A stretch of DNA of 64,000 bases from the IMG/VR virus record IMGVR_UViG_3300027848_000009, positions 91,888 to 155,887 of that record; one strand, 5' to 3'. Below the pieces are notes generated by a model that did no database searches, had not been told where the DNA came from, and was given only the letters and a program-made list of their open reading frames with translations. Source of the stretch: a virus. Made by a program: the position numbers and the translations under genes. Numbering within the stretch: position 1 is the first letter of the stretch; each line of letters opens with the position of its first letter. Positions 20,595-39,709 of the stretch are shown in pieces.

Positions 20595-21074
20595 ATGGCT
20601 CTAGATAGGTCTGGTGTTGAACTTCCGAGGAAGGGTTTCACATATCCCGATTTGGCTAACGCTTCAATCCTCGCCTCGTCGCTTGTGGGGCTTGGATTCG
20701 AGAATGCTACTGTCGCTTCAAACACTCTCAACACGACGGTGTGGTACGATGTCGGCAAGGCTCATGAAATTGTCGTAGACGGGGTCACCTCCACGGCAAC
20801 CAGTTCTTACACGGATATACCTATGGGTATTGTCATTACTGTCCGGGCAATCGGACCGTTTTTCCCGCCACATTTCCCGCCCCACTTCCCGCCGTTCTTC
20901 CCGCCCCACTTCCCGCCACATTTCCCGCCGTTCTTCCCGCCCCACTTCCCGCCACATTTCCCGCCGTTCTTCCCGCCCCACTTCCCGCCACATTTCCCGC
21001 CGTTCTTCCCGCCGTTCTTCCCGCCACATTTCCCGCCACATTTCCCGCCGTTCTTCCCGCCATCGTTTAAGTGA
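20595..21074 (+). CDS. protein with C-terminal (FPPH/FPPF)17 repeat; N-terminus possibly a degenerate PASTA-like domain
   Basis: Co-oriented with flanking genes; synonymous variation in the repeat preserves the F-P-P-X frame. Confidence 0.8.
   Translation: MALDRSGVELPRKGFTYPDLANASILASSLVGLGFENATVASNTLNTTVWYDVGKAHEIVVDGVTSTATSSYTDIPMGIVITVRAIGPFFPPHFPPHFPPFFPPHFPPHFPPFFPPHFPPHFPPFFPPHFPPHFPPFFPPFFPPHFPPHFPPFFPPSFK
20862..21065 (+). repeat. 17 x 12-bp tandem repeat with 36-bp higher-order period
   Basis: ttcccgccacat / ttcccgccccac / ttcccgccgttc units: 10 FPPH, 6 FPPF, 1 FPPS. Confidence 0.97.
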
Positions 21075-21080
21075 TTTCCG

Positions 21081-21356
21081 ATGATCAAGCGGTTCATAAG
21101 GTGGTATCTCAGGCCGATTGACCTAACTCGCGACGAACGAATCACCGGCGCTATTGGCTGGATGCTTCTGATAGTGGGCATTCTCGCCTACGACATTTTT
21201 GCTATTAGGACGCGGAAAATCGAAACGCTTTCTAGGTACTTTTGGCGATCCGCAGAGCGGACTGTATTTGGAAACACCCTGAGGTGCATCTGGGTCTGGC
21301 TAACATTTCATCTACTTTTTGAAACAAAAGTAAGAAAAACCCTGCACCGAAGATAA
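21081..21356 (+). CDS. small membrane protein
   Basis: Hydrophobic segments; AYDIFA...ETLS...WLTFHL. Confidence 0.7.
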   Translation: MIKRFIRWYLRPIDLTRDERITGAIGWMLLIVGILAYDIFAIRTRKIETLSRYFWRSAERTVFGNTLRCIWVWLTFHLLFETKVRKTLHRR

Positions 21357-21378
21357 CCGATCACGCTAATATACGGGC

Positions 21379-22011
21379 ATGGAAGAAACAGACGACGTCT
21401 CGTTGATCCACCCCGGACACTTTGGGGCATCAACAGACAACATCGTCCTCATCGAAGACTTTGTAGATGCAGATGATCTAATCACTCTCCAGAATTTTTT
21501 CCCCACTATCGACGAATGGGAGAATCCCCTTGAGGATGAGTTCAACGAAGACGGAACTTGCATTTACGACGCTTCATACTGGTGGGACAGGATGTGCAGC
21601 GGAGCAATCCTTCAAAGGACCGCACCAGAAATCCACGACCTGATCGACTTCTACATCAAGAAAATGAAGAACGTCCTCGATCAAAAGTTCAACGTCTCTC
21701 TGTACCAGCGACCGCCAGTGCTAATTAGATGGATGCCCGGAAACGAGCAGCAGCCACACGCCGACAAGCAACTCAATGATGGCACCCCGAACCCTTTCCC
21801 GTTGTACGACATCAACTCGATCATCTACTGGAACGACGATTTCAACGGCGGCGATTTCTACTATCCGGAATACGACATACATCTTCCAATCAAAGCCGGT
21901 ATGGCCGTCGCCCATCCGGGAGATATTCACTACCGGCATGGTGTGAAGCCAATCATTTCCGGCGAACGCTGGACAACACCTTCTTTTTACACGATCACGG
22001 AACTGAGATAA
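21379..22011 (+). CDS. 2OG-Fe(II) oxygenase, prolyl-hydroxylase-like
   Basis: HAD...YWNDDFNGG...HGVKPIISGERWT; leaderless TAATAT-N6-ATG. Confidence 0.92.
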   Translation: MEETDDVSLIHPGHFGASTDNIVLIEDFVDADDLITLQNFFPTIDEWENPLEDEFNEDGTCIYDASYWWDRMCSGAILQRTAPEIHDLIDFYIKKMKNVLDQKFNVSLYQRPPVLIRWMPGNEQQPHADKQLNDGTPNPFPLYDINSIIYWNDDFNGGDFYYPEYDIHLPIKAGMAVAHPGDIHYRHGVKPIISGERWTTPSFYTITELR

Positions 22012-22014
22012 ATA

Positions 22015-22725
22015 ATGCGCATCGGCGGCTACCTAGGAAACCCCACTGATGGAATTCTTCTCTACAAGGACGTTTGGCCAAAGGAATCAAACTTTGTTGA
22101 ACGCTTAGAGCGTGGCCTTGAGCAAAGTTCGAGCGAATATTTTTCGTGGCAGCAGGCAACAGTCGGCGACTACGAAATAATGAAGGACTATCGAGACTGT
22201 TTTGATTTCAAACTTCGCCAAGCCGACATTCCTGTGTCCGACGAATTTGCCGACCTTGGTCGAGTCTATGAAGAGGTTATTGAGGGAGTGCGTGAATGCG
22301 TTCTCCACTACTCGTCTCTTTACAACCTGCAACTCGACTACGAGGAAGCAACAAACTTTGTGAAGTACGGAGTTGGGCAGCACTTCTCAATCCATCCAGA
22401 TTCTGGCTTTTCCTACTCGTGCGCCGTATCGTGCGTCGGATACATCAACGACGACTACGAAGGCGGTGAATATGTGATGCCGTTCAAGAACCTCAAGTTC
22501 ATCCCCGAGGCCGGAGATGTAATTGTCCACCCCAGCGACTTCATCTACGCACACGCATCTCAACCAGTCTCATCTGGAATCAAGTACTCAGCAGTGACGA
22601 TGTACGACTACAACGACCGCAATCACCAAGCCCATTCTTCCGCCAAGTCGCCGGAGCCCGCCGTGACAATAAACAGCATTCCCGTCGCAAGTAATCAAAC
22701 GTCAGCGTACAACCCCGGTCCGTAA
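22015..22725 (+). CDS. 2OG-Fe(II) oxygenase, prolyl-hydroxylase-like
   Basis: HPD...YINDDYEGG...HASQPVSSGIKYS. Confidence 0.92.
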   Translation: MRIGGYLGNPTDGILLYKDVWPKESNFVERLERGLEQSSSEYFSWQQATVGDYEIMKDYRDCFDFKLRQADIPVSDEFADLGRVYEEVIEGVRECVLHYSSLYNLQLDYEEATNFVKYGVGQHFSIHPDSGFSYSCAVSCVGYINDDYEGGEYVMPFKNLKFIPEAGDVIVHPSDFIYAHASQPVSSGIKYSAVTMYDYNDRNHQAHSSAKSPEPAVTINSIPVASNQTSAYNPGP

Positions 22726-22728
22726 CCT

Positions 22729-23451
22729 GTGAAAGTTTCGTTAACTAGAACACATCAGAATCCGCCCGAGATCCGTCAGGCTGCAGTACGACGCGACTGG
22801 ATGGACGACACTTACAAGAAGCACGCATACAAGTGTCTGCCACTCACCGAAGCAAACGTAAACGGTTGGGACATGATCCTCCAGCAGGACGTTGTCATCC
22901 AGTGGGATGGCGGATTGACCGTGCCGAGAGTGCTCAGCGGCGAGAAAATGACGTTTGAGACAAATGGACAAACCTACGAACGCAACATCGTCATGCCGAG
23001 CATCGTTGGGATTATGTCATTCACGGTTGGATGGTCTTTTTCCACTCCGCCCGGTACCGCCACGTGGATCAGTGGATCACCAAACTATTTCGTTGACGGA
23101 GCAGTTCCTCTCACTGCCCACATCCCATCCGACTGGTGGCCGGACGAGTTCAACATGAATTGGAAAATCACCAAGATTGGAGAGCCGGTCACATTCCCGG
23201 CTGGATCTCCTTTCATGTTTTTTCAGTTCTACGACACATCCTTGATGCCAAGCGTCGAGTTCGAAGTCGAGAACTACTGGGACAAGCCAGAACTTTCTGC
23301 CGCTCGCCAGTCGTATGGCGATGCGAAAATGAAGAAACTCGAAGAGCAGCCTTGGACATGGATGGGTGGCATCAGGACTGGCCTTGACGAAAACGGAAAT
23401 CAGGTCGGTCCACGATTCGACGGGCACGTTCATTTAAAGGAACCACAGTGA
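22729..23451 (+). CDS. DUF6065-like protein
   Basis: RRDWMD....HAYKCLPLTEANVNGW...GSPNY..DG..PL...DWWP..F.MNWKIT; GTG start. Confidence 0.8.
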   Translation: MKVSLTRTHQNPPEIRQAAVRRDWMDDTYKKHAYKCLPLTEANVNGWDMILQQDVVIQWDGGLTVPRVLSGEKMTFETNGQTYERNIVMPSIVGIMSFTVGWSFSTPPGTATWISGSPNYFVDGAVPLTAHIPSDWWPDEFNMNWKITKIGEPVTFPAGSPFMFFQFYDTSLMPSVEFEVENYWDKPELSAARQSYGDAKMKKLEEQPWTWMGGIRTGLDENGNQVGPRFDGHVHLKEPQ

Positions 23452-25022
23452 GAAAATTTGGCGGGATTGCCTTAGGGCTTAAACTTGGAAACCTTGGCTT
23501 CAAGATCAAGGGAGTTACCCCTCAACAAGTGTTTGACGACCCCTCCTACTTCAGGGAGATTTTCAAACGCAACAAGGTGATCGGCTTTATAGGCATGCAT
23601 CCCACCGACATCGAACACATGCAGTTGGTGGACTGTATCTACAAAGGTGTCAGCGATCCAGACTTTCGCACAGGACTTCTTGCCGACCAGCGACATGAAA
23701 CAATTTCGGATGTCGAGGACAAATCCGATCCTGAAGGATTCCTGAAACGAAACTGGCATGTCGATAATCCATTCATGCCAGAGCCCCCATGCCTCCTCTC
23801 TATCCATATGACCACCTACAAAGTGGATCCAGACTATGGGCACACTTTTTTTGTCAGCCTCGCCAACCTGTATGACGAATGCCCCTCCCACCTGAAAGAG
23901 CATTTGAGTGACGCTCACTTCGTGTGCCAGACGGGAGCAATCGATCAGGATATCTCGACACACCCGGCCTTGCGCACCCACCCCGACACAGGGGAAACGA
24001 TGCTGTACTGGACAGGGCCCGGAACGGCTCTTGCCGGGGGCAACACTCCATGGTTTGAAGAACTGTACGGTTGGGTGACGAAATACTGCGCAAACGAAGC
24101 GAATCGCTTCAAATGGGTTTGGTCAGAAGGAGACGTGATCATCTGGGACAATCGGGCGGTCATGCACGGCTTCTACAATGGATGGGATCGGTCGGAACGC
24201 ATCTTCCAACGCGTCGAAGTTGGACATGAGCAACCTTTCTTTGACCCCGACCATGTCGGCAACTGCGATCCGGACTTCGGTGACACCAATGAATACAAGG
24301 GTGTCGATAAAGATAAATCGAAGGGACCCAATCCGGACCACATACCCCTCGTTTTCACGAAGGGCATCTACGCCCTCGAAGGCTTGGATCATCTTTTCCA
24401 GACAGTGACGCTCTTCGTGTTCTCGAAAGACGGTTCGATACCTGACAACGTTCGCGAGTTCAAAGAATTAATTGATGAGACTGACGACCTTTCCGACGAC
24501 TTCAACGTTGTCGGAGTTCCCATCGATGAGTCCAATCGATTGTTTGCAAACTTGATGAGGTACAGCAAACACCACAATCTAGAGGACCCGGTAGAAGGAC
24601 AGATGTTCCTTTTCTCTCGCAATGGAGACACACACGGTGGCTCAATGCCCGCCAGAGAAGATCTGATGAGGACAGCCCCATACGAGGGTGGGAAGTTGAC
24701 GCCGATCGAAACAGTTCGCGCATATCTCCGCTGGCACCCAGAAATGAGGCATGCTGGCCACGCTTGGCACTATCCGGATTGGTTCCCTCATCAGCCTCTC
24801 CAGTTCAGGCCTTGGGATTTCCAGAACCTTTTCTTCATGACGTACGAGGGTTTTAGTGGAAAAAATCCGCCAGAAGATTTTCTGGTACAGTTCGCCATTG
24901 ACACGATCTTCGGTTGCTTCAACCACCTAAGAGACAATGGCGAGCGCAGGCAGATCATCGAGCGAATCAACGATTACGTCTCATACATGCTGGAGTTGGA
25001 TGAACATGAGTTCGAGCGATAA
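23448..25022 (+). CDS. TauD/TfdA-family 2OG dioxygenase with ~250-aa unknown C-terminal domain
   Basis: WHVD, HPALRTHPDTG, W..GDVIIWDNRAVMH...R motifs. Confidence 0.88.
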   Translation: MRKFGGIALGLKLGNLGFKIKGVTPQQVFDDPSYFREIFKRNKVIGFIGMHPTDIEHMQLVDCIYKGVSDPDFRTGLLADQRHETISDVEDKSDPEGFLKRNWHVDNPFMPEPPCLLSIHMTTYKVDPDYGHTFFVSLANLYDECPSHLKEHLSDAHFVCQTGAIDQDISTHPALRTHPDTGETMLYWTGPGTALAGGNTPWFEELYGWVTKYCANEANRFKWVWSEGDVIIWDNRAVMHGFYNGWDRSERIFQRVEVGHEQPFFDPDHVGNCDPDFGDTNEYKGVDKDKSKGPNPDHIPLVFTKGIYALEGLDHLFQTVTLFVFSKDGSIPDNVREFKELIDETDDLSDDFNVVGVPIDESNRLFANLMRYSKHHNLEDPVEGQMFLFSRNGDTHGGSMPAREDLMRTAPYEGGKLTPIETVRAYLRWHPEMRHAGHAWHYPDWFPHQPLQFRPWDFQNLFFMTYEGFSGKNPPEDFLVQFAIDTIFGCFNHLRDNGERRQIIERINDYVSYMLELDEHEFER

Positions 25023-25842
25023 ACAACTTCCCGTCGGCAAACACCTTGGTGGTGGAGTAGTCCTATTCGAACAAGTGTTCGATCTTGACTGGGATTGGAT
25101 GAGAACGTACTGCAAAGATGTTTTGCAGCGCGAGCGCGCCACCATGTACGAGCCGGGCATCGACCCGATTACTGGCGACGATGGATACATCAACAGAAGT
25201 GGATACTTCTTCAAGAAAGATTCTCTCGACGAGATGCCATGGCGCGGCAGTTTTGTTCATCAAGACAGCAGGTCCGACGTTATCGAAACCCTTGATTACA
25301 TCGAAGAACGAAGAGATGCATGCCTGTTGACGTATCTCGGAATGTTCCCAATTGCGGGAAAATGTATTTGGTGGAAAATCAAGAGCCACATCGTCGCCTA
25401 CCCGATTGGTGGATTCCTCGGGATGCACGCCGACATCAGTACCGATTATGAATACGGCAAACCTCACCCCCGTGACCAACTCGCGACAAGGAACACCGTC
25501 TCAGTTGTCGCGTACCTCAACGATTCAGTTAAATCTGCGGACGAGTTGGATGGAACCAACTTTACCGGAGGGGCGCACAACTTCACCTACCTCGACATCA
25601 ATCATGAGGATATAAAGAAGGGCGACATGCTCTTCTTCCCCTCGAACTACGTAGCGGCACATGAGGTACAGCCAGTAACTGGCGGTTGGCGCTACTCCTA
25701 CTTGGGGTGGTATTGTCAGGGAACACCGAATCCGGCGGTGTGTGAAAATGTAATGGACCCGAGCGACAACCCGGAACTCGCCAAAATCTCGACGAATGTG
25801 TACATGAAACATGGCTACTCACTCCTGCCCCCAGTCGGCTAG
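25006..25842 (+). CDS. 2OG-Fe(II) oxygenase
   Basis: HAD...YLND...FTGG...HEVQPVTGGWRYS. Confidence 0.9.
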   Translation: MSSSDKQLPVGKHLGGGVVLFEQVFDLDWDWMRTYCKDVLQRERATMYEPGIDPITGDDGYINRSGYFFKKDSLDEMPWRGSFVHQDSRSDVIETLDYIEERRDACLLTYLGMFPIAGKCIWWKIKSHIVAYPIGGFLGMHADISTDYEYGKPHPRDQLATRNTVSVVAYLNDSVKSADELDGTNFTGGAHNFTYLDINHEDIKKGDMLFFPSNYVAAHEVQPVTGGWRYSYLGWYCQGTPNPAVCENVMDPSDNPELAKISTNVYMKHGYSLLPPVG

Positions 25843-26392
25843 AACAATCGGAATTGTCCACCCCGGCAGGATGGGTGGCACTTTGGCGTACGATCTCAAG
25901 AAAAGTGGCCACATCGTCTACTGGGCATCGTCAGGTCGCTCCGAAGCAACCGAAGAGCGAGCCAACGAGTTTGATCTTGTCGACCTCGTCGACGTCGACA
26001 CCGTCCTTGCCAAAAGCGAAATCGTGTTCTGCATTGCCTTTGGTGGAGCACCACTTGAAATCGCCAAGCACGTCGCCACAGTTGGCTACGACGGTATCTA
26101 CGTCGACGCCAATGGCCTGTGGGGCGAAGAGTCGGAGAAAGAGATTGCGTCCATCATCAACGATGCTGGGATCACCTACGTCGAAGCCGGTCTGTACGGT
26201 TGGCCACACCCGGGTCGCGAAGGATACACGGACGAGCACACCCTGTACCTGTCAGGAGAGAAGGCTGATGAAATTGCCAATCTTTTCTCATCGGGGTATT
26301 GGACTACCGAAGTACACCCGACGTCAGCAAAAGAAGTAAAACGCCTGAGGAACGATCGGGAACGAGGAACAGAGTTCCCCGAACAAGAGTAA
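25811..26392 (+). CDS. NAD(P)-binding oxidoreductase (6PGD/beta-hydroxyacid dehydrogenase N-terminal domain only)
   Basis: IGIVHPGRMGG Rossmann motif, GRSEAT..RA, YVDAN, LYLSG. Confidence 0.8.
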   Translation: MATHSCPQSARTIGIVHPGRMGGTLAYDLKKSGHIVYWASSGRSEATEERANEFDLVDLVDVDTVLAKSEIVFCIAFGGAPLEIAKHVATVGYDGIYVDANGLWGEESEKEIASIINDAGITYVEAGLYGWPHPGREGYTDEHTLYLSGEKADEIANLFSSGYWTTEVHPTSAKEVKRLRNDRERGTEFPEQE

Positions 26393-27063
26393 TGAAAGCA
26401 ACTCACTACGGATTTGGAATCGTCGAGTACGAGAACGTAGCCGACATCGATTCCGATTATCTGGAAGGCTGGCTAGAGAGGCGACGTCTTCAAGAACCTA
26501 ACGACTACACGCTTCAGAGCGACGGCACCTACATGAACAGGGGTGGGTACGTCTTCACGGAAGATCAAGTGAACGCTTCGCCCGGTCGTCTACTCCGGTT
26601 GAAGGTCAACTGCAGTGATGAAGATCTCGCCTTCGCAGAAAAACTCGAAAATGTCACCGCACTCTGCATTTCCGAATATTTTAATATCTTCCCAGAGGCG
26701 CAACGAAGTGTCTGGTGGAGGGCGGATCCCCATGTGGCAACCTACAAGCCCGGAGGATACATGGGGTACCACCACGACAATCTTGTTGGGGCTGGATCGG
26801 AAAGCGAAAAAGCGATCTACAGCGTCCTCACTGCATCTATAATCCTGAAAGATCAATGTAGCGGCGGAGATTTAGGGTTCAAATACATTGACAAGCATTT
26901 TGCGCCCAAGGCTGGAACTGCTTTTGTTTACCCTGCGGGTTTTCTAGGAACACACGAAGTGTGTCCGGTAACTTCCGGTGAACGTATTTCTTATTTGGAG
27001 TTCTTTGGGCACGGAACGCTGATGGGAGCCAACCCTTTCACTCCTCCTCGTACGGAATCCTAG
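26392..27063 (+). CDS. 2OG-Fe(II) oxygenase
   Basis: TAATG coupling; HHD...GGDLGF...HEVCPVTSGERIS. Confidence 0.9.
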   Translation: MKATHYGFGIVEYENVADIDSDYLEGWLERRRLQEPNDYTLQSDGTYMNRGGYVFTEDQVNASPGRLLRLKVNCSDEDLAFAEKLENVTALCISEYFNIFPEAQRSVWWRADPHVATYKPGGYMGYHHDNLVGAGSESEKAIYSVLTASIILKDQCSGGDLGFKYIDKHFAPKAGTAFVYPAGFLGTHEVCPVTSGERISYLEFFGHGTLMGANPFTPPRTES

Positions 27064-28036
27064 TTCCGCTGGGGCCACCCTCTTTGGAGCGTTGCTGCGT
27101 CTCGATTGTAGAGGCGTGGAACCCGAGAGCGGAGTCTTTTGATGTATCGAGATGCGAGTGCCCCGACTTCGAGAACTTCACATGATCTTGGTAAAGGTAA
27201 GGGACGTAAACCGGAGCAAGCCACATGTCGCTTTCTTGCGGTTCTGAAACTTCGGCCATGTGCTCGCCGCCATGGCCAAACTGGGTGAGGTAGCTGTAGC
27301 GCGGCGTTTCGCCTGTAACCTGCGTCACCCCATGAGTGCCAACGTAGTTTGCTGGGAAGAGAATCATGTCCCCAGTCTTGGGTTTGATGGTGACATCCAA
27401 ATAGGGGAAGTGCATTTCCCCACCCTCGTAATCGTCGTTAAAGTAGGCTAACCCGTTGACGACTTGGTACATGGCAATCTCACGACCGCTGTAGTAACGC
27501 TGGCCATCAACAACGAACGTGTTCGTGTCATTATCGTTGTGTAGACCGAGGTTAGCCCCCGGCATGAATTTCAGGCAGTGCCCCCTCATTCGCCACCAAA
27601 CCGAGTTGACCATGAGCGGGTAGAGATCGCAATACCGGATCAAGGCGTGGTAGAACGATTCTTCGACGTGCTCGAAAAACGCCCTCACGTCGTGCCTCGT
27701 TTCCGGGCTGACCGGTTCAGGCATTCCGTGACCACCAACTCGCATTGGCAGGGCTAGAAGGTCTTTGATGTCAACGACTCTCCCGTCAAAAGTTTCGCCA
27801 CGGATCATGTTGCCTTCTTCGTCCCTGATGATCTCAAGGCCACATGATGGGACGTAAGCCAACTCGTCGATGTGGGGGAGCACGACGCTTTGGTCTATGT
27901 CGAACACGTTATGAAAGTGAATGACGCCACCGGTGTGATGGGTGTATTCGATCTCGTTTACGCGTTTGCAGTCATTTTCGTCAAGACTGTAATATGCGTA
28001 TTTGTTGCGATCCGGAGGGCCAAGTCGTGCGGGCAT
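27038..28036 (-). CDS. 2OG-Fe(II) oxygenase
   Basis: HND...YFNDDYEGGEMHF...HGVTQVTGETPRYS; leaderless TAATAT-N7-ATG. Confidence 0.9.
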   Translation of the reverse strand: MPARLGPPDRNKYAYYSLDENDCKRVNEIEYTHHTGGVIHFHNVFDIDQSVVLPHIDELAYVPSCGLEIIRDEEGNMIRGETFDGRVVDIKDLLALPMRVGGHGMPEPVSPETRHDVRAFFEHVEESFYHALIRYCDLYPLMVNSVWWRMRGHCLKFMPGANLGLHNDNDTNTFVVDGQRYYSGREIAMYQVVNGLAYFNDDYEGGEMHFPYLDVTIKPKTGDMILFPANYVGTHGVTQVTGETPRYSYLTQFGHGGEHMAEVSEPQESDMWLAPVYVPYLYQDHVKFSKSGHSHLDTSKDSALGFHASTIETQQRSKEGGPSGTRIPYEEE

Positions 28037-28046
28037 ATCTACTATA

Positions 28047-28820
28047 TTATCTTACTTTGTAAGCAATAGCAGTGCCGATTTCGTCGTGCGCTAAGTGAAA
28101 CACGTTGAAGTCGTCGCGCTGCAAAATTCTCCTGTTGATCCGGTGCATGTGATGTTCGTGCGCCTTTAGTCCGTCCTCGTAGAGCGACCCAAACTCGGCG
28201 AGGTCATAGATCATCATGATTCCGCCAACTTTGATGGAGTCAAGTAGACGATCTACGATGTTCAAGTTTGGGGTAAGGAAGTCATGGGTGTGCAGTCGAG
28301 CGGAGTCGAAATAGTTGACAACGTTTCCGTCTTCGAAATCCTGAAGGTCGATTACGTTGTATTTGCATTCTGAATGATTTGGAACGGTTCCATTTTCGTC
28401 AAGCGTTTCTTCCATAATTCTGGTTTCAAAAGTATTGATCCAGTAATAGTCCTTGGTACCTTCAGACATGGCGGGGAAGTGAGTGTTGACTGGAAAGGAT
28501 CCGGAAATTAGAATTTTTTCCGGCGTGGTCGGATCGACGGGTTTAAGGATGCCAAAAAGCGACTTGACGGCAATGTAGTTTCGCCACGCGTATTCGAGCC
28601 AAGTATTATCCTGCTCGCCAAGCCACGTAGAGTACTTCCAGAAGTACCAGTCGCGACCCATGGCCGCTTGTCGCTTGTCAGCGTTTGCTTCCGCGATTCC
28701 GGCATCAGCAAGTCTTGAGTAGTCGCGAACAAGGCTCAGTTCGTCATCCCATGTTGCGCCAGTCTGATTAGTGGAGAGGCTTCTAGCGACAATGCCTTTA
28801 TGGAAAATGCTGCTAGACAT
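28047..28820 (-). CDS. methyltransferase-fold protein (divergent)
   Basis: LLDSIKVGGIMMI...RDDFNVFHL....GTAIAYK resembles an O-methyltransferase C-terminus; paralog of 35169-35876. Confidence 0.5.
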   Translation of the reverse strand: MSSSIFHKGIVARSLSTNQTGATWDDELSLVRDYSRLADAGIAEANADKRQAAMGRDWYFWKYSTWLGEQDNTWLEYAWRNYIAVKSLFGILKPVDPTTPEKILISGSFPVNTHFPAMSEGTKDYYWINTFETRIMEETLDENGTVPNHSECKYNVIDLQDFEDGNVVNYFDSARLHTHDFLTPNLNIVDRLLDSIKVGGIMMIYDLAEFGSLYEDGLKAHEHHMHRINRRILQRDDFNVFHLAHDEIGTAIAYKVR

Positions 28821-29148
28821 TGTTCTCTACCTCGAACGACGAAATGTGACGACGACGCCAAAACCTGCGCGATAGCAGCATCATCCAACTTTTTTGTTTA
28901 CGTCCAAACGAGAATCCGGGATCGCAGGAACGTTGCTTGTCCCCGACCGGCAGGTAGGGCTCCATTGGATGTGGTTCGAACATCCACCCACATCGATCAA
29001 TCAGATCGTCGATTGTGTACGTGTTCATGTCTTCTTCGTTCAAACCAAGAATGTAGAAGCAGGACAACAGGTGCTTGGATGACCACCCCAATTCCGAGTG
29101 CGGGCTGTAAATCTTTCCAGATGTTGGGCTTACTTGCCTAATTGTCAT
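28813..29148 (-). CDS. hypothetical protein
   Basis: Coupled ORF; similar to 34892-35176. Confidence 0.65.
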   Translation of the reverse strand: MTIRQVSPTSGKIYSPHSELGWSSKHLLSCFYILGLNEEDMNTYTIDDLIDRCGWMFEPHPMEPYLPVGDKQRSCDPGFSFGRKQKSWMMLLSRRFWRRRHISSFEVENNV

Positions 29149-29823: not shown

Positions 29824-29825
29824 CT

Positions 29826-31956: not shown

Positions 31957-31958
31957 TC

Positions 31959-32522
31959 ATGTTTCCAAAAATCTACGAAGACTACATTTACGTCTACGAA
32001 AAATCCGTTGTCATTGAAGAAGGCATGGAGGACGTGATCAGGAGGGGGACTGCCTCGGATTGGTCTTTCGTGAGTTTTACGACAGTCGTGCCGGAATCAG
32101 CCGATGTCGCGCTCTCGGAGATCGCCTCTCTCAATCCACTATCGACCCAAGTCGACGACGTTTTCCTAAATTACTTGAGAGAGAAAATTACTTCAATAGA
32201 TTTTATTTCATTAGAAAATTTCCAAGATTACTGTCTATCCCATGACATTTCTGCTAAACAATTTTCTTCTTACGACATGATTAGAATTTCTTCTACAAGC
32301 AACAATGGGTTCTCTGCAATTGTAGGAGGACTGCTGCAAGACGGAATTATATCCGAGGTTGTATCTATCTCTCCGAATGATACAAAACTTGACTTTCCCC
32401 ACCTCGGAATAGAAGTACCCATTTCGCAGGGTGACACAGTTTTTATTCCGGGCGGATTCCCATACTCTTTCCGATGTTTAGCAAACCCATCCAATATCTT
32501 CCTAAAACGTTCTTGTCGGTAA
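31959..32522 (+). CDS. degenerate 2OG-Fe(II)-oxygenase-like protein
   Basis: LDFPHLGIEV...GDTVFIPGGFPY matches the jelly-roll of its neighbours, but HxD and distal His are absent. Confidence 0.55.
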   Translation: MFPKIYEDYIYVYEKSVVIEEGMEDVIRRGTASDWSFVSFTTVVPESADVALSEIASLNPLSTQVDDVFLNYLREKITSIDFISLENFQDYCLSHDISAKQFSSYDMIRISSTSNNGFSAIVGGLLQDGIISEVVSISPNDTKLDFPHLGIEVPISQGDTVFIPGGFPYSFRCLANPSNIFLKRSCR

Positions 32523-32525: not shown

Positions 32526-34010
32526 TTGGGAGTTTCAAAAATCGTCATAGTCGGATCTGGCACTGCCGGACTTGTTAACGCCCTCGTTCTTAAAAAAGTG
32601 TTGAGCAAGTTAGATGTCACCGTCGTTTCATCTGAATCAATCGGCATTATTGGTGTAGGTGAAGGAAGCACCGAGCACTGGACAACATTCGAAAAATTGA
32701 CAAATATTGATCGATCTGAGATGGTACGAGAAACCGGAGCCACCTTCAAATTTGGAATTAGATTTCTCGACTGGACAACACACACACCCGACTACTTCCA
32801 TAGCATCAGTGGCGGACAGGCCACACAGGCGACCTTCAACGGAACCTACAACTGGGCGGTCGCTCAAGAAAAGCAGTTGACTCCAACATTCGGAACACCG
32901 TCGATCATCCACAATCTGGTCAGAGAAACCGAAGAAAACATATTAGACCAAACAAACCAGTTTCATTTCGATACGTTTCTCCTGAACAAATATCTGAAAA
33001 GCAAGTGTTCAGATGCTGGTGTCAACTTCATTGAGGGAACAGTCGTAGGGATTCGCCGCGATCCAATCACTGGAGACGTTTCAGGGATACATCTTGAGGA
33101 CCGCGAAGATGTGATCGAAGCAGACTTCGTCGTTGACGCTTCAGGTTTCCGTCGTGAGGTCATTTCCAGACTAGGGGATGCAAGGTGGGAGTCATTCGAG
33201 GATTACCTCCCTACCGACAGCGCTGTCGTTTTCCAAACACCAGAAGACACCGTCAACGGCATAAAGCCTTACACGTTGGCAACCGCGATGAGTTCTGGCT
33301 GGATGTGGGAAATTCCAACTATCAGTCGCCGCGGCAATGGTTACGTTTTCTCTTCATCACATATCTCTGACGAGGATGCAGTAGATGAGGCGTCGAGAGT
33401 GAGTGGCTTCGATGTTCCAGATACCGCTCGTATCATTAGGTACAATTCTGGATACCTGAAAGAAACATGGAAGCACAACTGCGTCGCTGTCGGTCTTTCT
33501 TCCAACTTTATTGAGCCGCTTGAAGCAACATCAATTTCCGCCTCCATAAATCAGGCGATACTTTTGACGAGTTACATTCCTGCGTACTCCCCCGATGCAA
33601 GCATTATCAGGTCTGAATATTGCCGCATTTTTGATTCCATGATGGAAAACTTATTGACAATGATTTCGCTTCACTATGTTTCCAATAGGGACGATACAAG
33701 CATGTGGGCGGATCAGAAACATCGGCCACTACCGCCCACCCTTTCCACGATTATCGAGATTATGAAGTATCGCGGTCTGGAAGAACACGACATACCAGAC
33801 TGCGGATTTGATCTATTTAGATCCTTCCATTTTTGGCACGTTGCTCAGGGGCAGGGTTTGATTTCGAAAGATGTCTGCGCCAGCAATATCTCGATGCGTG
33901 GCACCAATGACCTACTCGAACGCAGCGTTTCAGATAGCATTTCCGGAAGCCGACACGGCAAATTGATCGGACACAAAGAAGCACTCATGAAAGGTTGCAG
34001 TCGTGGCTAA
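32526..34010 (+). CDS. flavin-dependent halogenase, tryptophan halogenase (PrnA-like) family
   Basis: GSGTAG, GVGEGS, TFKFGIRF (catalytic Lys), WMWEIP, FIEPLEATSI. Confidence 0.92.
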   Translation: MGVSKIVIVGSGTAGLVNALVLKKVLSKLDVTVVSSESIGIIGVGEGSTEHWTTFEKLTNIDRSEMVRETGATFKFGIRFLDWTTHTPDYFHSISGGQATQATFNGTYNWAVAQEKQLTPTFGTPSIIHNLVRETEENILDQTNQFHFDTFLLNKYLKSKCSDAGVNFIEGTVVGIRRDPITGDVSGIHLEDREDVIEADFVVDASGFRREVISRLGDARWESFEDYLPTDSAVVFQTPEDTVNGIKPYTLATAMSSGWMWEIPTISRRGNGYVFSSSHISDEDAVDEASRVSGFDVPDTARIIRYNSGYLKETWKHNCVAVGLSSNFIEPLEATSISASINQAILLTSYIPAYSPDASIIRSEYCRIFDSMMENLLTMISLHYVSNRDDTSMWADQKHRPLPPTLSTIIEIMKYRGLEEHDIPDCGFDLFRSFHFWHVAQGQGLISKDVCASNISMRGTNDLLERSVSDSISGSRHGKLIGHKEALMKGCSRG

Positions 34011-34713
34011 GAATCCAAGTTTTCACTTTCCGACCGGAAAGATTGGTCAAATCATGTATGGGGATAACTTGATCCCAAAACGAATATGTGAAGGATTGAT
34101 AGATGAAAGCAGTCGCTACTTCGACAGGCTTTTCAAGCCCGGGATAACTATTAGTGGATCGAACCCCCTTGTCAAGTCGTCAAGTGACTTCAACTTTTCT
34201 AAAAAGATGATTGATGAGGTCGGTGTCGACTCAAGCAATTTTGCATTTTACGAGAACGAAGTTTCAGTTGGTTTGTACTCGGCTATCGCCCACTACATTC
34301 AAGAATATGAAGAATTGTGGAATTGGCCGGGCGTTCAGGATACGGGCTACCGGATGCAAAGATACTTCCGCAATCACGGTTACTACAGGGCCCACGTCGA
34401 CGGCAATCCATGGGAGTCCATATCGGGTGGCGAGAAACCACGAGTACTAGGCGTGATCATCTACCTCAATGATGTCGAAGTTGGTGGAAGTACATATTTC
34501 CCCAGCCATGACGTTCATGTCCCAGCAAAAGCAGGTCGAATCAGTGTTTTCCCAACGAATTGGACCCACCCCCACATGGGGCAGGTACCGATTACTTCAG
34601 ATAAGTGGATAATCAGTACTTTTATGACCGCCGACATTTACGATCGGACACCAGCACAAGAGCCCGAAACGTACGCCAAGGATAACGAATCCTCCGAAAC
34701 AGATGGCTCGTGA
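34003..34713 (+). CDS. 2OG-Fe(II) oxygenase
   Basis: HVD...YLNDVEVGG...HMGQVPITSDKWII. Confidence 0.9.
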   Translation: MAKNPSFHFPTGKIGQIMYGDNLIPKRICEGLIDESSRYFDRLFKPGITISGSNPLVKSSSDFNFSKKMIDEVGVDSSNFAFYENEVSVGLYSAIAHYIQEYEELWNWPGVQDTGYRMQRYFRNHGYYRAHVDGNPWESISGGEKPRVLGVIIYLNDVEVGGSTYFPSHDVHVPAKAGRISVFPTNWTHPHMGQVPITSDKWIISTFMTADIYDRTPAQEPETYAKDNESSETDGS

Positions 34714-34745
34714 TGGTAAAATAAGGTTTAAGGTTGGAGGTAACC

Positions 34746-34892: not shown

Positions 34893-35176
34893 TGGGAAAG
34901 TACGACATCGATGACGATTATGGCTTTCGCATCACACAGATCGCTCGACTCATCTCACTTTGCGGTGAAGACGAGACGCGGGCCACAGAAATTACCGTCG
35001 ACGAACTGACGGGCCTGCTGGCCGGGCACTACTACCCAAACGCGAGCCCGACGTCGCCTATGAACACAAACGCCGAGAAGGTGTTGTATCGAGTTTTCTA
35101 CAGAACAAAAGAGCAAGCAAGAACGAACTGCTATTACCGCGACATTCTGAAAGCAAGGATGTTTGGAGATGTCTAA
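34892..35176 (+). CDS. hypothetical protein
   Basis: Similar to 28813-29148. Confidence 0.65.
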   Translation: MGKYDIDDDYGFRITQIARLISLCGEDETRATEITVDELTGLLAGHYYPNASPTSPMNTNAEKVLYRVFYRTKEQARTNCYYRDILKARMFGDV

Positions 35177-35876
35177 CATGACCCCAATCCAACTCTATTC
35201 GGTGACCGAGGCGCTTTCGAATCCCAGCCACCACACCACAGACACAATCGAAAACCGCAAGGCTTTTGGACAAGCGGTCAAAAAAGAAGAAATCCAGCTT
35301 GGCGCCCAGCAAGACAGGAACTCCACTGGATGGTCCACCGAGATCGCGCATTACGAGATGCTCTCACTGGGGTCGTTCAACTTCAACGTCATCCTCTCTG
35401 GGTATCTCACCGCCCTAGAGGGAATTATCAGGTCAGCGAACCCCAGTAAACTCTTTTGTAGCGGTGGCGCATCTCTGCGTGTCGTCAGTCAGGGCGATTT
35501 TGGAGCGGAACTTTTCGTTGAAAACTCCATCCACCTCGACTACATCGAGCGGCACATCGGCATTCCTGATGACGTCACTTATAATATAATTACGCATACA
35601 GATGTCGAGTCCGGAACATTCCCGGCTCAACTCGACTGCGCCATCCTAGATACTGTGACGGCATCAAGAAATATTCATATTCTTGACTCGTTGATTAACA
35701 ACATTCCTTCAGGGAAGACGATAATCCTGACAGTCTCTCTGGATCAAGGCTTTCTGGCCCAATACGGGGATAATCATGACTTCTGGCCAATGTTCAGAGA
35801 CCTCGCTAGTCGTGATGACATCCGAGTCCACCACATCCCCCTATCGCTTGGTCTAACTATCATCACAAAACGTTGA
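35169..35876 (+). CDS. methyltransferase-fold protein (divergent)
   Basis: LDCAILD...RDDIRVHHIPLSLGLTIITKR resembles an O-methyltransferase C-terminus. Confidence 0.55.
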   Translation: MSNMTPIQLYSVTEALSNPSHHTTDTIENRKAFGQAVKKEEIQLGAQQDRNSTGWSTEIAHYEMLSLGSFNFNVILSGYLTALEGIIRSANPSKLFCSGGASLRVVSQGDFGAELFVENSIHLDYIERHIGIPDDVTYNIITHTDVESGTFPAQLDCAILDTVTASRNIHILDSLINNIPSGKTIILTVSLDQGFLAQYGDNHDFWPMFRDLASRDDIRVHHIPLSLGLTIITKR

Positions 35877-35895
35877 AATAGTGTAGGCTGCAGCA

Positions 35896-36741
35896 ATGGC
35901 CGACCTGAACAGCGATAAAATTATTACCGCTCGATTTCTGGGCGATATTCCAGAGGTGAAGCCGGGCCAAATTCTGGTTGCACCGTCTAGTAATAGGATG
36001 TACGACGAGAGAATTCATCCAGTCGATAACTTTCTTAACTTCCCTCAGTGGTTCAAAGATCTGGATTCCGAGCAGCAAACGCTCAAGAGGTGTCAAGGTA
36101 CTCAAGACTATTTGACGACCGGAATGACGTTGCGCCTACCCAGTGATGTGAAAATTCGACTAGACGCTGTCGGCCAAGGCTGGGAATCCAGATATGAAGT
36201 CGCCGAAAACATTCCTCATCTGGGTGTCGAGAGCTTCTCTTACGATCAGACAGGTCCGATTCCAGCCACTGAAGGCAGGAAGATCAAGCGCGCCAACTGG
36301 ATCAAACTCCTAAACCCTTGGGAAGTAAAGACCGCACCCGGTTGGTCGTCAATGATTCTTCCCGTTCTGTGGGAGCAAAGCCGAGACTGGTCGCTAGTTC
36401 CCGGAGTGGTTCATACCGATTTCTACCATCACATGAATTGGGTCCTCAACATCTATACGGATGCGGAAGAATTAGTTATCCCAATGGGAACTCCGGTCGC
36501 ACATGTCATCACGTTTCCTCGAACAGTCAAGAGCGAGGTCGTTTATGGAGACGAAGGTGTCCATAATCTCATTTACTCCAGAGGTATGGGAAGCGTGTTC
36601 GGTGGCCACGTTGATAGCAGGGATAGAAAATACAGGATCCACCAGAGGAAGGTTGATTCCGGGTGTCCAATATTTCACGGAACCCCAGAAAAGAAGAGAG
36701 GCCGGTGGAGTAGGATTTTCCGCTCCATTTGGCGCCACTAA
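35896..36741 (+). CDS. DUF6065-related / dUTPase-like beta-clip protein
   Basis: KRCQG..DYLTTG, KTAPGWS, PGVVHTD, IPMGTPVAHVI; leaderless TAGGCT-N6-ATG. Confidence 0.6.
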   Translation: MADLNSDKIITARFLGDIPEVKPGQILVAPSSNRMYDERIHPVDNFLNFPQWFKDLDSEQQTLKRCQGTQDYLTTGMTLRLPSDVKIRLDAVGQGWESRYEVAENIPHLGVESFSYDQTGPIPATEGRKIKRANWIKLLNPWEVKTAPGWSSMILPVLWEQSRDWSLVPGVVHTDFYHHMNWVLNIYTDAEELVIPMGTPVAHVITFPRTVKSEVVYGDEGVHNLIYSRGMGSVFGGHVDSRDRKYRIHQRKVDSGCPIFHGTPEKKRGRWSRIFRSIWRH

Positions 36742-36788
36742 TGATGGTAATATGTAAAACAGGACGCGTCGCCGAGAGGAATTAGTAA

Positions 36789-37160
36789 ATGGCCTTCTAC
36801 CAGAAACGAATCGTTGGCCCCACTACTCTGGGTACAACCGCAAGTAGCATTACCGTACCAGTATCATCATCATACGAAGTCCCCGTTGGTTCCACGGTAA
36901 TCATTAAACAAATTATCGTCACAAATATTACCGCCTCATCCAAGACGGTAACAATTTGGGTCGTTCCAGCCAACACCTCAGCGGCGGACTCACACATCAT
37001 TTTCCACGATCTCCTCATCAACGCCAACGAGACAACTCTCATCAACATGTCGCTAGTCATGTCTGAAGGGAACCCTGACGGAGACAAGCTCTACGCTAGG
37101 GCAAGTGCCGTTTCAGCGGTGAATATGACCATTAGCGCGGTGGACGAGGACGCAACCTGA
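36789..37160 (+). CDS. probable virion structural protein
   Basis: Beta-rich; IIKQIIVTN...GDKLYARAS. Confidence 0.6.
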   Translation: MAFYQKRIVGPTTLGTTASSITVPVSSSYEVPVGSTVIIKQIIVTNITASSKTVTIWVVPANTSAADSHIIFHDLLINANETTLINMSLVMSEGNPDGDKLYARASAVSAVNMTISAVDEDAT

Positions 37161-37843
37161 TGGGCGGGATCGTAAGGGTTAACGCCCCAGATCCCCTCGC
37201 CGAGTATATAAATTCCGCTGACGAGATCTACGGAACAGGCGTAGATGGGAGCGTTCAGATAACGGCGGATGCACACCTGATCTCCGACATGTTTTACTAC
37301 AACCTCACTATTGACCCATCAATAACTTTATTTACTGATGGTTACAGGGTATTCGTCAAAAATCTTCTCACACTTGGCGACAATTCGGTTATTGGTAATC
37401 CCGGTGGTTTTTCTGGAACCGGAACTCTCCTCAGTGGTGGAAGCACGGTCGGCGAAAACGTCACCAACAGCCTTGGCGGCGACGCCGCTGCTACCTACAC
37501 TGCCACGCCTCCAACCGCAGCCAATGGTGGCAGCGTTTACTATCGGTACCCGTCGCAGGCAATATTGGGATACCAGATCACCGCTTCCTCTAGCGGGCCC
37601 GTCTATCTTCGTGGCGGCGCTTCTGCCACCGGAACTTCCGGTGGTGGCGTTGTCATCGTCGCCGCGCGTTACATCTCCTGCAACGGAACGGCTCAAGTAT
37701 CAGCCACTGGCGGAGTCAGCGCTGGCGGTGGAGTCGTCATTCTTGTCAGCACGCCAAGTGTCGCCCCCGCTGGGCTAGTTCTCAACGTTGCAGGGCAAAC
37801 TGGTGGAGCCAGTGGGACGGCCATTTATCTAGAGGTTGACTGA
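37160..37843 (+). CDS. Gly-rich structural protein
   Basis: IYGTGVDG...YYNLTI...GYRVFV, GGGVVIV repeats; shares N-terminal domain with the next gene. Confidence 0.7.
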   Translation: MGGIVRVNAPDPLAEYINSADEIYGTGVDGSVQITADAHLISDMFYYNLTIDPSITLFTDGYRVFVKNLLTLGDNSVIGNPGGFSGTGTLLSGGSTVGENVTNSLGGDAAATYTATPPTAANGGSVYYRYPSQAILGYQITASSSGPVYLRGGASATGTSGGGVVIVAARYISCNGTAQVSATGGVSAGGGVVILVSTPSVAPAGLVLNVAGQTGGASGTAIYLEVD

Positions 37844-39399
37844 TGGGCATTGTTCGAATTAAGGCAAAGCCTGACCAAAGGCTAGGAAATGATTCGATTT
37901 ACGGATCCGGGTACGATGGTTCCACGGTAATTTCGTCTACATTCATAATGAATAGAGACTATTATTGGGACAACTTGACGATCAACTCTACCGGTAACCT
38001 GTTCACCAACGGTTACCGAGTGTTTGTGCAGAACACTCTCACCATGGCACAGAATGCCACGATGGGGATGTCCGCGTCATCCAACATAACCGACGTAAAC
38101 ACCTTTGGGACGTTGATCGGCCGAGCGGACGATGCCGAGACCGGCATCACAAAGCAATACGTCCTAGGTGACAGTTCGTCCGGAACTCAGGTGCCACCAT
38201 CGATCATCCATGATCTCAATTTCTCCATCCGTGGATGGCACTACGACCCGGTGGTCGGCTTCCGTCGAGTAGAAGGTGGAGACGACGGTGGCCAAGGCGT
38301 GAATGTCGCCGGAACTGCCGGTGGCGGCAGTAACGCAGGCGCAGGCGGTGCAGGTAGCTCTGGAGGCTCTGGAGGCTCTGGAGGCTACGCTCCAGCACCG
38401 GCTAACCCCGGCAATCCGGGAAATCCGGGGACCACCGGAGCAAGCGGCAACCCGGGAAATCCGGGAAATCCCGGAAATGCTGGCGCGCAAGGTATCGGTG
38501 GTCAAGGTGGAGATGGCGGTGGCCTTGTAGTCGTTGTTGCAAAAAACATCGTTTACAGCGGCGAAAGTGGCACGGCCGTCATCGAGTCTTGGGGAAGGCC
38601 GGGATATTATGGTTCAAAAGGAAATGACGGAACTGTTGGGACTACCGGTACAGCAGGAACTGGTGGCGCAGCAGGAACGGTTGGGGCCGCAGGGAACGCA
38701 GGCAGCGGCTACCCGGCTCAATCTTACCCATCGACACAAAACCCGATCGTTCACACTGTATCAGGCCACAATCCTTCGACTCGGAACCATCATACCGCAA
38801 GCAGTCATACCGCTGCAACCGCAATTCACGCCAACGCTCATGGCGGTCGAACCATAATTAATCACGACTGCAAAGCGGATACAAACCCGGCCGCTCATCA
38901 CCACAGGAGAAGCAACCAGCACAGCAATTTCCATAACGACGGCTACAAAGGCTCGATGCATCAATTTTTACTAAGAAGCAACGCCCACCACGGCGTCCAC
39001 AACCCTGCCACCAACACGGGAAACCATCATTGCAACACCAATTACAACCCCAACCATAACCATACGTATGTTTCTGGGCACAACCCTGCCACAACAAACC
39101 ACCATCACGTTGCGGGCAGCCACAACCCTCAGACCCAAAATCATGCGGCAAGTGGAGGCACCCACAACGCTGCCGTTCACTATCCTGCGATTCCCGGTGG
39201 CGCCGAGGGAATAGGTGGAACGGCGGGGGCCGGTGGCGCAGCAGGTGCGGCGGGTGTCGGTGGCGCCAAGGGAATAGGTGGAACGGGCGGAACCGGAACG
39301 GTTGGACTTCGCGGCGGATTGCTTGTCGTGTGCGACACAATTTCGGCGTCGATTAACACAGTTAATGGCGGGCATGGAACTGTTTTACTCAACGCTTAA
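37843..39399 (+). CDS. collagen-like Gly-rich fibre protein with His/Asn-rich insert
   Basis: GNP/GTA/GAA triplets flanking about 160 aa rich in H, N, T, P. Confidence 0.75.
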   Translation: MGIVRIKAKPDQRLGNDSIYGSGYDGSTVISSTFIMNRDYYWDNLTINSTGNLFTNGYRVFVQNTLTMAQNATMGMSASSNITDVNTFGTLIGRADDAETGITKQYVLGDSSSGTQVPPSIIHDLNFSIRGWHYDPVVGFRRVEGGDDGGQGVNVAGTAGGGSNAGAGGAGSSGGSGGSGGYAPAPANPGNPGNPGTTGASGNPGNPGNPGNAGAQGIGGQGGDGGGLVVVVAKNIVYSGESGTAVIESWGRPGYYGSKGNDGTVGTTGTAGTGGAAGTVGAAGNAGSGYPAQSYPSTQNPIVHTVSGHNPSTRNHHTASSHTAATAIHANAHGGRTIINHDCKADTNPAAHHHRRSNQHSNFHNDGYKGSMHQFLLRSNAHHGVHNPATNTGNHHCNTNYNPNHNHTYVSGHNPATTNHHHVAGSHNPQTQNHAASGGTHNAAVHYPAIPGGAEGIGGTAGAGGAAGAAGVGGAKGIGGTGGTGTVGLRGGLLVVCDTISASINTVNGGHGTVLLNA

Positions 39400-39424
39400 T
39401 GTACAATTGGATAGGTGATTTCGT

Positions 39425-39709
39425 ATGGCTACCCTAAAAATGACTCCAGAACAAAGACGCAAAGCGCTACTCGATGCTAGGCGTGACTTAGAAGCAACCA
39501 TTTACACAATGGCTGCCGCACTCGGTCTCGACGTTGACCTGCTGGATGACATCACCCAAATTGGTAGCCTTTGGCACGATCCGGAACTAGACATCCCTAC
39601 GATCGCTGCCGACGACAGGGAGTGGCCGATCTACCTCAAATTGGGGCATTTGACCGACAGGCTTGCTCTCGTTATTGATAAACTTGAGGGACCTAACCGG
39701 ATCGTCTAA
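39425..39709 (+). CDS. small helical protein (paralog family of 29375-30059)
   Basis: EQRRKALLDARRDLEATIYTMAAALGLDVD. Confidence 0.7.
   Translation: MATLKMTPEQRRKALLDARRDLEATIYTMAAALGLDVDLLDDITQIGSLWHDPELDIPTIAADDREWPIYLKLGHLTDRLALVIDKLEGPNRIV

Follow-up and report, generated by a model that had tools for sequence, protein, structure and literature searches.

A fibre-adjacent oxygenase island in an uncultured freshwater myovirus and a linked Phe-Pro-Pro-x repeat protein as its candidate substrate

Arrays of 2-oxoglutarate (2OG)/Fe oxygenases, with up to 24 members per genome, are among the commonest 'auxiliary' genes of aquatic phages and were noted between 2007 and 2010 (PMC3037559, PMC9602691, PMC2938197). 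In cyanophages, such oxygenase genes have been regarded as auxiliary metabolic genes with a link to 2OG levels (PMC3037559, PMC9602691). Iyer et al. 2010 (PMC2938197) described a cluster of dioxygenase and halogenase genes in the cyanophage Syn9, for which small-molecule tailoring was proposed, as well as bacterial neighbourhoods that combine JmjC, halogenase, SapC and TonB receptor genes and others that have no JOR/JmjC (MINA-like) member. Here we analyse a 64-kb stretch of viral DNA (64,000 nucleotides, hereafter the window), which is the 3' end of a 155,887-base IMG/VR record from freshwater metagenomes (IMGVR_UViG_3300027848_000009; CheckV completeness 98%). Between its tail-fibre genes and its lysis module, the window contains an enzyme island at positions 20595-39709 (features lie on the plus strand unless stated otherwise), whose first gene encodes a protein built of Phe-Pro-Pro-x units, referred to as the FPP-x protein. 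Genes for FPP-x proteins and genes for oxygenases or DUF6065 proteins are linked, in both directions, over well more than 100 uncultured phage fragments. On the basis of this linkage and of the families involved, we put forward, with a likelihood slightly short of even, that the core oxygenases, together with DUF6065, hydroxylate the stalk prolines of the FPP-x protein and so form a fibre-linked protein-tailoring cassette.

We called open reading frames (ORFs), scanned the island proteins against Pfam, NCBIfam and PHROG, and compared the island with the Syn9 cluster. In the Syn9 record, the cluster (gp41-gp60) starts right after the tail-fibre and fibre-assembly genes gp32-gp39, and Syn9 holds ten dioxygenases, two halogenases and gp43, the homologue of a window protein described below. 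Both clusters contain an array of distantly related classical 2OG/Fe dioxygenases, a Trp-type halogenase (with a conserved Lys in the window enzyme) and a dUTPase-fold protein with a conserved Cys, and both are positioned just downstream of tail-fibre genes. Homologues of the window halogenase, of oxygenase 7 and of the protein encoded at 35896-36741 are found in the Syn9 cluster. The two clusters differ in that the window virus is an unrelated, non-T4-like freshwater myovirus; its island has no JmjC/MINA-type member (no island ORF matched JmjC or Cupin_8 at E < 0.01) and adds a TauD fusion, two O-methyltransferase-fold proteins and a glutathione-peroxidase-like (GPx-like) protein. Only the window phage has DUF6065 proper and the FPP-x repeat, neither of which was found when Syn9 was searched for them. 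Because of the shared enzyme set, the homologues and the fibre-side position, we classify the island, from its sequence, as a Syn9-type cluster, known but functionally unexplained, in an unrelated phage lineage. An initial annotation of the window, made from the sequence alone, had placed the island directly after the tail fibres and had stated that oxygenase and halogenase islands occur near fibre genes in aquatic phages; the PHROG fibre matches with their 7-base gap to the island agree with the first statement, and the Syn9 cluster agrees with the second.

A second point of comparison, and the precedent for the proposed stalk hydroxylation, is the prolyl 4-hydroxylase (P4H) of the chlorovirus PBCV-1, which, as summarised in PMC3634087, hydroxylates viral Pro-Ala-Pro-Lys repeats. 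As in PBCV-1 (P4H structure, PDB 5c5t), a virus-encoded P4H-type enzyme and proline-rich repeat proteins are present in the same genome here. PBCV-1, however, infects eukaryotic algae and has one enzyme and a different repeat, and its activity was shown in vitro, whereas the window system is known from genes alone. We know of no gene adjacency and no DUF6065 partner in the PBCV-1 system. For bacterial operons in which dioxygenase genes accompany collagen-like or tail-collar genes, the neighbouring repetitive structural protein was likewise proposed as the substrate (Iyer et al. 2010, PMC2938197). Those operons are cellular loci with other dioxygenase families (of the beta-hydroxylase or phytanoyl-CoA type) and with sulfotransferases, and the idea is a proposal only. 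Collagen, plant extensins and mussel foot proteins have tandem proline-rich repeats whose hydroxylation confers stiffness or adhesion, and in mussel foot proteins aromatic residues neighbour the proline-rich repeats; unlike the window system, these are eukaryotic secretory-pathway systems, and the proteins have no homology to the FPP-x protein.

The FPP-x gene (20595-21074) starts 7 bases after the end of the upstream fibre gene, and the first oxygenase gene follows less than 300 bases further on the same strand. The protein consists of a head of about 85 residues, 17 Phe-Pro-Pro-x units, the number given in the initial annotation, and a C-terminal Phe-Lys, where x is His or Phe except in the final unit, in which it is Ser. 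At the DNA level the repeat is homogenised to only four distinct 12-base units. Neither Pfam nor PHROG matched the protein, and a literature search for the repeat strings in about 8.4 million papers returned nothing, so that we found no described counterpart of the Phe-Pro-Pro-x unit. Across relatives, homologues contain 8-34 units with His, Phe, Tyr or Trp as x: close relatives share a common head (46-66% identity) and have 12-34 units in which x is His, Phe or Trp, and more distant relatives have 8-27 units in which x is Tyr or Phe. The heads of some relatives match PASTA, either over the Pfam cut-off (L001 and L046) or under it (L029 and L036). The window head had no PASTA match in Pfam, and its hhalign probability against PASTA-type heads was 1.3%, which is not significant. 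A marginal PDB profile match of the head to the BclA C-terminal domain (E 0.04) was judged to be chance. One phage fragment (L156, from 3181) encodes a Pro-Phe tract followed by a putative Hint/intein-type domain, which starts with Cys and ends near His-Asn, in a single ORF of 577 amino acids.

In divergent phages, the FPP-x tract is an internal linker in proteins of 300-1080 residues with FN3- or Ig-like domains. The repeat is thus seen in three contexts: a small head with a stalk, a PASTA head with a stalk, and an internal linker of FN3/Ig-like fibre-type proteins. Across genomes, the peptide is conserved while its surroundings change. When 596 Gb of prokaryote genomes were searched, the FPP-x pattern was matched only 36 times, and the true repeat proteins among these matches were all on phage-like contigs with fibre genes, with oxygenase genes at most of the loci. 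Because of this conservation across genomes, contexts and phage-like contigs, we conclude that the FPP-x tract, newly described here, serves fibre-region proteins as a conserved, phage-specific stalk or linker module.

We surveyed the linkage of repeat and enzymes from two anchors: DUF6065 genes with at least 8.4 kb of upstream DNA, and repeats with at least 5 kb of downstream DNA among the IMG/VR matches listed. From the first anchor, an FPP-x gene was found in 37 of 37 loci, some of which share one contig, always on the same strand and 1.3-8.5 kb upstream; the DUF6065-anchored loci without an FPP-x gene all have 5.9 kb or less of upstream DNA. From the second anchor, at least two oxygenase ORFs were present in 25 of the 33 loci among the matches listed, and DUF6065 in 24. 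Nine records that appeared to be exceptions were searched whole: five have 5-11 PF13640 genes elsewhere and one has a single copy, and the remaining three, with no oxygenase gene, are fragments that are 13-31% complete. The initial annotation had proposed co-occurrence of FPPx-repeat genes with these oxygenase and DUF6065 clades as a check, and the linkage found from both sides accords with it.

Gene order and copy number vary among relatives. In the relatives G001 and G003 the island is complete and its gene order retained, and G002 keeps its left half only. In G002, a 137-kb relative (L098, 66000-85950), the retained part, comprising the fibre gene, the FPP-x gene and the island's left half, is followed by 20 kb with nothing like the window halogenase block, the Gly-rich proteins or the lysin, and the right-hand region appears to have been replaced wholesale. 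Because G001 and G003 keep the whole island and G002 the left half, the conserved core consists of the fibre gene, the FPP-x gene, two oxygenases and DUF6065; the variable part consists of the halogenase, the TauD fusion, the methyltransferase-fold proteins and the collagen-like protein. One explanation of such a locus is a permissive hot spot in which unrelated accessory genes have gathered after the fibres, with an FPP-x adhesin that needs no modification and a linkage that reflects shared ancestry only. Consistent with this explanation, close relatives differ in whether they have the right half of the island (missing in G002, kept in G001 and G003), gene order and copy number vary, the repeat copy number is labile and homogenised in its DNA, and no dose relation was seen between oxygenase and repeat number. 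However, the core trio is 61-91% identical across lineages whose fibres have diverged past tblastn detection, the repeat occurs in at least four protein architectures, always in oxygenase-bearing genomes, and domain fusions join DUF6065 to hydroxylases. We therefore regard a mere hot spot as doubtful.

The initial annotation had listed seven prolyl-hydroxylase-like oxygenases with an intact HxD...H...R/K motif and a degenerate eighth, and both the PF13640 matches and our alignment (A1) bear this out. The signature of the P4H family, comprising a double-stranded β-helix core, the HxD...H triad and a basic 2OG residue, is present in seven of the eight proteins, which retain HxD, the distal His and a basic residue about ten positions on. 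All three are missing from the eighth paralogue (31944-32522; BLAST E 0.003 to oxygenase 6), which has thereby lost its metal and 2OG ligands. Two of the seven belong to the core. Oxygenase 1 (21379-22011), whose motifs are intact, matches PF13640 weakly (E 1.6e-3), has collagen prolyl 3-hydroxylase P3H1 as its best PDB profile match (E 1.6e-6) and is present in nearly all related loci. Oxygenase 2 (22015-22725; PF13640 E 6.8e-8), also with intact motifs, adjoins DUF6065 in nearly all loci. The other P4H-like members are oxygenase 3 (24937-25842; E 1.9e-10), with intact motifs and no match among PDB sequences; oxygenase 4 (26299-27063; E 1.7e-9), a paralogue of oxygenases 3 and 5; oxygenase 5 (27038-28036, minus strand; E 5.8e-8), with intact motifs; oxygenase 6 (31282-31956; E 5.1e-13), whose best PDB matches are the P4Hs of B. 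anthracis (E 3.7e-5), Chlamydomonas and, weakly, PBCV-1 (5c5t, E 0.11); and oxygenase 7 (34003-34713; E 2.6e-8), which matches Syn9 gp50. The closest solved relatives of oxygenases 1 and 6 are therefore peptidyl-proline hydroxylases. The paralogues are old, with pairwise identities of 21-36% or none detectable. When read from their first possible start, several island ORFs overlap the upstream neighbour by 30-115 bases (24937-25022, 25811-25842, 26299-26392 and 31282-31396). Relatives of oxygenases 3, 4 and 6 align only from about residue 33, so the true starts of these overlapping ORFs, including that of oxygenase 3, are probably internal.

The P4H-like family also includes hydroxylases of EF-Tu and of ribosomal proteins. 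It is conceivable that the island enzymes act as hydroxylases on host proteins (translation factors or ribosomal proteins, for instance), or that they burn 2OG to reset nitrogen and carbon signalling, in which case their position beside the fibres would be incidental. Such a host take-over would agree with the auxiliary-metabolic-gene view of 2OG levels in the cyanophage literature (PMC3037559, PMC9602691) and with one further PF13640 gene that lies elsewhere in this genome, far from the fibres. We consider it improbable, as the position of the cassette beside fibre and repeat genes is constant over wide divergence, there is no sign of early-gene placement, and many divergent paralogues with active sites kept point to distinct substrates rather than to bulk 2OG consumption. 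A literature search on when the Syn9 genes are expressed turned up nothing usable.

The third member of the enzyme core and the signature gene of the island is DUF6065 (22729-23451; Pfam E 1.3e-42), the best conserved island gene, with 61-91% identity over about 90 loci. A search of 1.84 billion proteins yielded 1355 representative homologues at E < 1e-3, and an alignment of 98 sequences was used for modelling. The resulting AlphaFold2 model had a predicted local distance difference test (pLDDT) score of 95.9, as compared with 39 when only 19 close homologues were used. With this model as the query, dUTPases occupied all top places in Foldseek (probability 1.0) and VIA-align (Z 9.9), at only 9-16% sequence identity, and we conclude that DUF6065 is predicted to have a dUTPase-like fold. 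The near-invariant residues are mostly Trp, Gly and Pro, along with an invariant Cys36, Asn119 and Arg22. A role in nucleotide modification, which the fold prompted us to consider, was set aside, as nothing else supports it. In other organisms, DUF6065 is fused to PF13640, JmjC/Cupin_8, SapC or glycosyltransferase domains (representatives P0026, P0056, P0065, P0066, P0067, P0079 and P0109), the JmjC/Cupin_8 fusion being found in four of ten long representatives and the SapC fusion in one. As judged from domain composition, these fusions tie DUF6065 to protein-hydroxylase-type enzymes and to the bacterial neighbourhood of halogenase, SapC and TonB receptor genes. A distant representative, P0016, had no relative in IMG/VR, and a literature search for DUF6065 returned nothing.

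Two DUF6065-like proteins had been annotated initially, and this assignment is secure for 22729-23451; the second protein (35896-36741) is at best a remote relative. It carries a conserved Cys and matches the PHROG family phrog_7084 (E 4.5e-24) but has no match in Pfam. BLAST between the two window proteins found nothing, and hhalign of DUF6065 against the second protein gave a weak match (E 0.005, probability 6.7%); 11% of the members of its Atlas cluster carry PF19541. A hidden Markov model of the 35896-36741 family matched Syn9 gp43 with E 1.2e-19, and the Cys is invariant in the family. Syn9 gp43 is an unannotated gene directly after the two halogenase genes (L255, 16055-16843), and its product is probably the dUTPase-fold, conserved-Cys protein meant by Iyer et al. 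2010.

Beyond the core, the island encodes several further tailoring enzymes, for most of which the initial assignments stood. The PrnA-like halogenase (32526-34010) is a flavin-dependent enzyme of the Trp type (Pfam Trp_halogenase E 2e-101), with PDB matches to Trp 5-, 6- and 7-halogenases and to VirX1, and is 27% identical to Syn9 gp41/gp42 (BLAST E 1e-40 to 1e-42). In a HMMER alignment with 5hy5, the flavin adenine dinucleotide (FAD)/nucleotide loop, the catalytic Lys, the Trp-x-Trp-x-Ile-Pro motif and the Glu motif all align, the catalytic Lys being aligned to the Lys of the solved Trp 6-halogenase. VirX1 of a cyanophage (PDB 6qgm) is, like the window enzyme, a phage PF04820 halogenase with conserved catalytic motifs (E 3.2e-38), but the window enzyme is nearer to bacterial Trp 5/6-halogenases (E about 1e-57) and is present in only some relatives. 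The TauD-like dioxygenase (23448-25022; Pfam TauD E 4.7e-24) is a fusion in which the match is confined to the N-terminal half (residues 35-254), with weak NCBIfam matches to taurine dioxygenase and ScoE, and in which the C-terminal half is unassigned. The annotated NAD oxidoreductase domain corresponds to a Rossmann-like NAD(P)-binding protein (25811-26392; Pfam E 1.7e-5, with weak matches to F420_oxidored and NAD_binding_2), which is only a candidate for the partner flavin reductase of the halogenase, and the annotated peroxidase corresponds to a GPx-like thioredoxin-fold protein (30148-30795; Pfam GSHPx E 5.9e-9), whose gene adjoins DUF6065 in distant relatives. The two methyltransferase-fold proteins (28047-28820, minus strand, and 35163-35876) are paralogues of each other (E 2e-6) and match O-methyltransferases of the Methyltransf_3 type by PDB profile (3cbg, E 6e-4) and by Atlas structure (TM about 0.6); they are predicted to share that fold.

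It is possible that the dioxygenases, the halogenase, the TauD enzyme, the O-methyltransferases and the reductase act on a metabolite rather than on a protein, successively hydroxylating, halogenating and methylating a compound derived from an amino acid, which is what Iyer et al. (PMC2938197) proposed for the cyanophage cluster and for the bacterial JmjC/halogenase/SapC/TonB neighbourhoods. The complete catalytic motifs of the halogenase, the one DUF6065-SapC fusion and the mostly small-molecule repertoire of the TauD, Trp-halogenase and Methyltransf_3 families are consistent with this proposal. However, Pfam scans of the island found no domains of non-ribosomal peptide synthetases, polyketide synthases, ATP-grasp enzymes, prenyltransferases, transporters or exporters, or proteases, in agreement with the initial annotation, which had recognised no such synthetase, synthase or transporter, and the island thus has neither a scaffold-forming enzyme nor an exporter. 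Moreover, the halogenase, the TauD fusion and the methyltransferases are variable, whereas the core beside the fibres consists of P4H-like oxygenases and DUF6065, and small-molecule tailoring leaves the linkage to the repeat unexplained. We consider it quite unlikely.

At the right end of the island, two conserved backbone proteins that are probably structural (36789-37843; one of 123 amino acids and one Gly-rich, of 227) are kept in G001 and G003. For the Gly-rich protein (37160-37843), phage-size contigs encode a family of more than 379 unnamed homologues, and the gene therefore looks like a backbone gene. The next gene (37843-39399) encodes a collagen-like, His/Asn-rich protein whose first 75 residues are common with 37160-37843, making its N terminus paralogous to that protein. 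Its Pfam Collagen score is 18.2 bits, under the cut-off of 27.2, and only about a dozen consecutive Gly-X-Y triplets are seen. G001 and G003 retain both its Gly-Asn-Pro triplets and its His/Asn-rich tract; the protein is absent from G002, G004 and G005. In residues ~300-450, a His-Asn-Pro-x-Thr...Asn-His-His motif recurs, is kept in two relatives and has no family match; the tract could bind metal. The initial annotation had described the island as bracketed by repeat proteins. This is the case in the window but does not hold generally, as the collagen-like protein is a paralogue of a backbone protein and is absent from enzyme-bearing relatives; it is possibly an extra substrate rather than a boundary that defines the system. 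The suggestion of a RiPP-like pathway (that is, one resembling those of ribosomally synthesized and post-translationally modified peptides) did not hold up: there is no leader/core logic, protease or exporter, and the repeat is also found as an internal linker of large proteins.

The timing, substrate, chemistry and benefit of the proposed protein-tailoring cassette are inferred as follows. Judging from the tight one-strand packing, the fibre-adjacent genes would probably be made with the late structural proteins. The core, comprising two P3H/P4H-like oxygenases and the dUTPase-fold DUF6065 protein, would hydroxylate prolines of the phage's own proline-rich appendages, with the Phe-Pro-Pro-x stalk of 20595-21074 as the first candidate substrate and the Gly-Asn-Pro triplets of 37843-39399 as a possible second target. 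The extra oxygenases, the TauD fusion, the halogenase and the O-methyltransferase-fold pair may be lineage-specific decorations, possibly acting on the aromatic x residues, and these variable enzymes would be dispensable for the core link. Such modification may make the adhesin stalk stiffer, more stable or stickier, an effect comparable to that of hydroxyproline in collagen, extensins and chlorovirus repeat proteins.

Several observations weigh against this proposal. The linked loci are not phylogenetically independent: for the most part they fall into a single broad lake-phage group with common fibre genes, and the co-occurrence could therefore be inherited backbone rather than function. The converse of the linkage fails in Syn9, which has the enzymes without DUF6065 and without the FPP-x repeat, so the enzymes do not need this repeat. 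Seven paralogues with intact active sites exceed what one substrate explains, and the number of oxygenases does not correlate significantly with the number of repeats (rho 0.33, p 0.21, n=16). Small molecules are the usual substrates of TauD enzymes, Trp-type halogenases and Methyltransf_3 enzymes, and the collagen-like protein is missing in relatives that retain the enzymes. The initial idea that the substrates are visible in cis accordingly stands in part for the FPP-x protein, given the linkage and the P3H/P4H likeness; for the collagen-like protein, which some relatives have and others lack, it is weak.

The phage itself has a myovirus gene set, including a tail sheath (631-2106), a baseplate wedge (10790-12019) and two fibre genes. 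The first of these encodes a tail-fibre-like structural protein (16651-17997), which has PHROG fibre and virion-protein matches, is 75-82% identical to its counterparts in close relatives and marks the upstream boundary of the locus. The second encodes a tail fibre protein (18048-20588; PHROG tail-fibre families, best E 6.9e-35) and is found immediately 5' of the FPP-x gene in every close relative. Compared with the sheaths of Gordonia and Arthrobacter phages, that of the window phage shows an identity of only about 37%, and the lineage is probably actinobacterial. Searches of GenBank phages with the island by megablast gave no DNA-level match, and tblastn searches of them with DUF6065 gave no match; the lineage is therefore uncultured. 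Scans for promoters and terminators showed no excess over shuffled sequence. Two further sets of genes lie within the island: a gene for a small predicted membrane protein with a weak DUF7427 match (21081-21356; Pfam E 1.5e-5, under the cut-off), present in close relatives only, and five small ORFs on the minus strand (28813-30059; 111, 76, 76, 73 and 77 amino acids), which have no Pfam match and whose order is kept in close relatives. Just beyond the island, 39710-41497 encodes a protein of 595 amino acids that has a membrane anchor at its N terminus and, over about 150 residues, a tract that is almost purely Thr/Pro and made of degenerate 24-36-base repeats; its gene closely precedes that of a PG_binding_1 lysin (41729-42721), and the product is probably a cell-envelope or lysis-associated protein. 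In the structural module, a minus-strand frame (8012-8365) within the plus-strand gene 7542-8990 has about 19 consecutive Pro codons, which therefore correspond to a long run of Gly codons in the protein of that gene.

The presence of a repeat protein beside the enzymes provides a concrete candidate substrate and makes the function of aquatic-phage oxygenases testable. It is possible, although we hold this wider view only tentatively and well below an even chance, that tailed phages of lakes build a hydroxylated, perhaps aromatic-decorated, Pro-aromatic stalk on their host-recognition apparatus, and that the 2OG arrays of aquatic phages, including cyanophages, are virion-maturation systems and not metabolic ones. 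Such a stalk, if real, would parallel, in phages, the chemistry of extensins or mussel glue. It would also represent hydroxyproline-type maturation of bacteriophage virion proteins, would give a role to DUF6065 and to the Syn9 gp43 family, and would shift a large gene class from 'host metabolism' to 'virion construction'.

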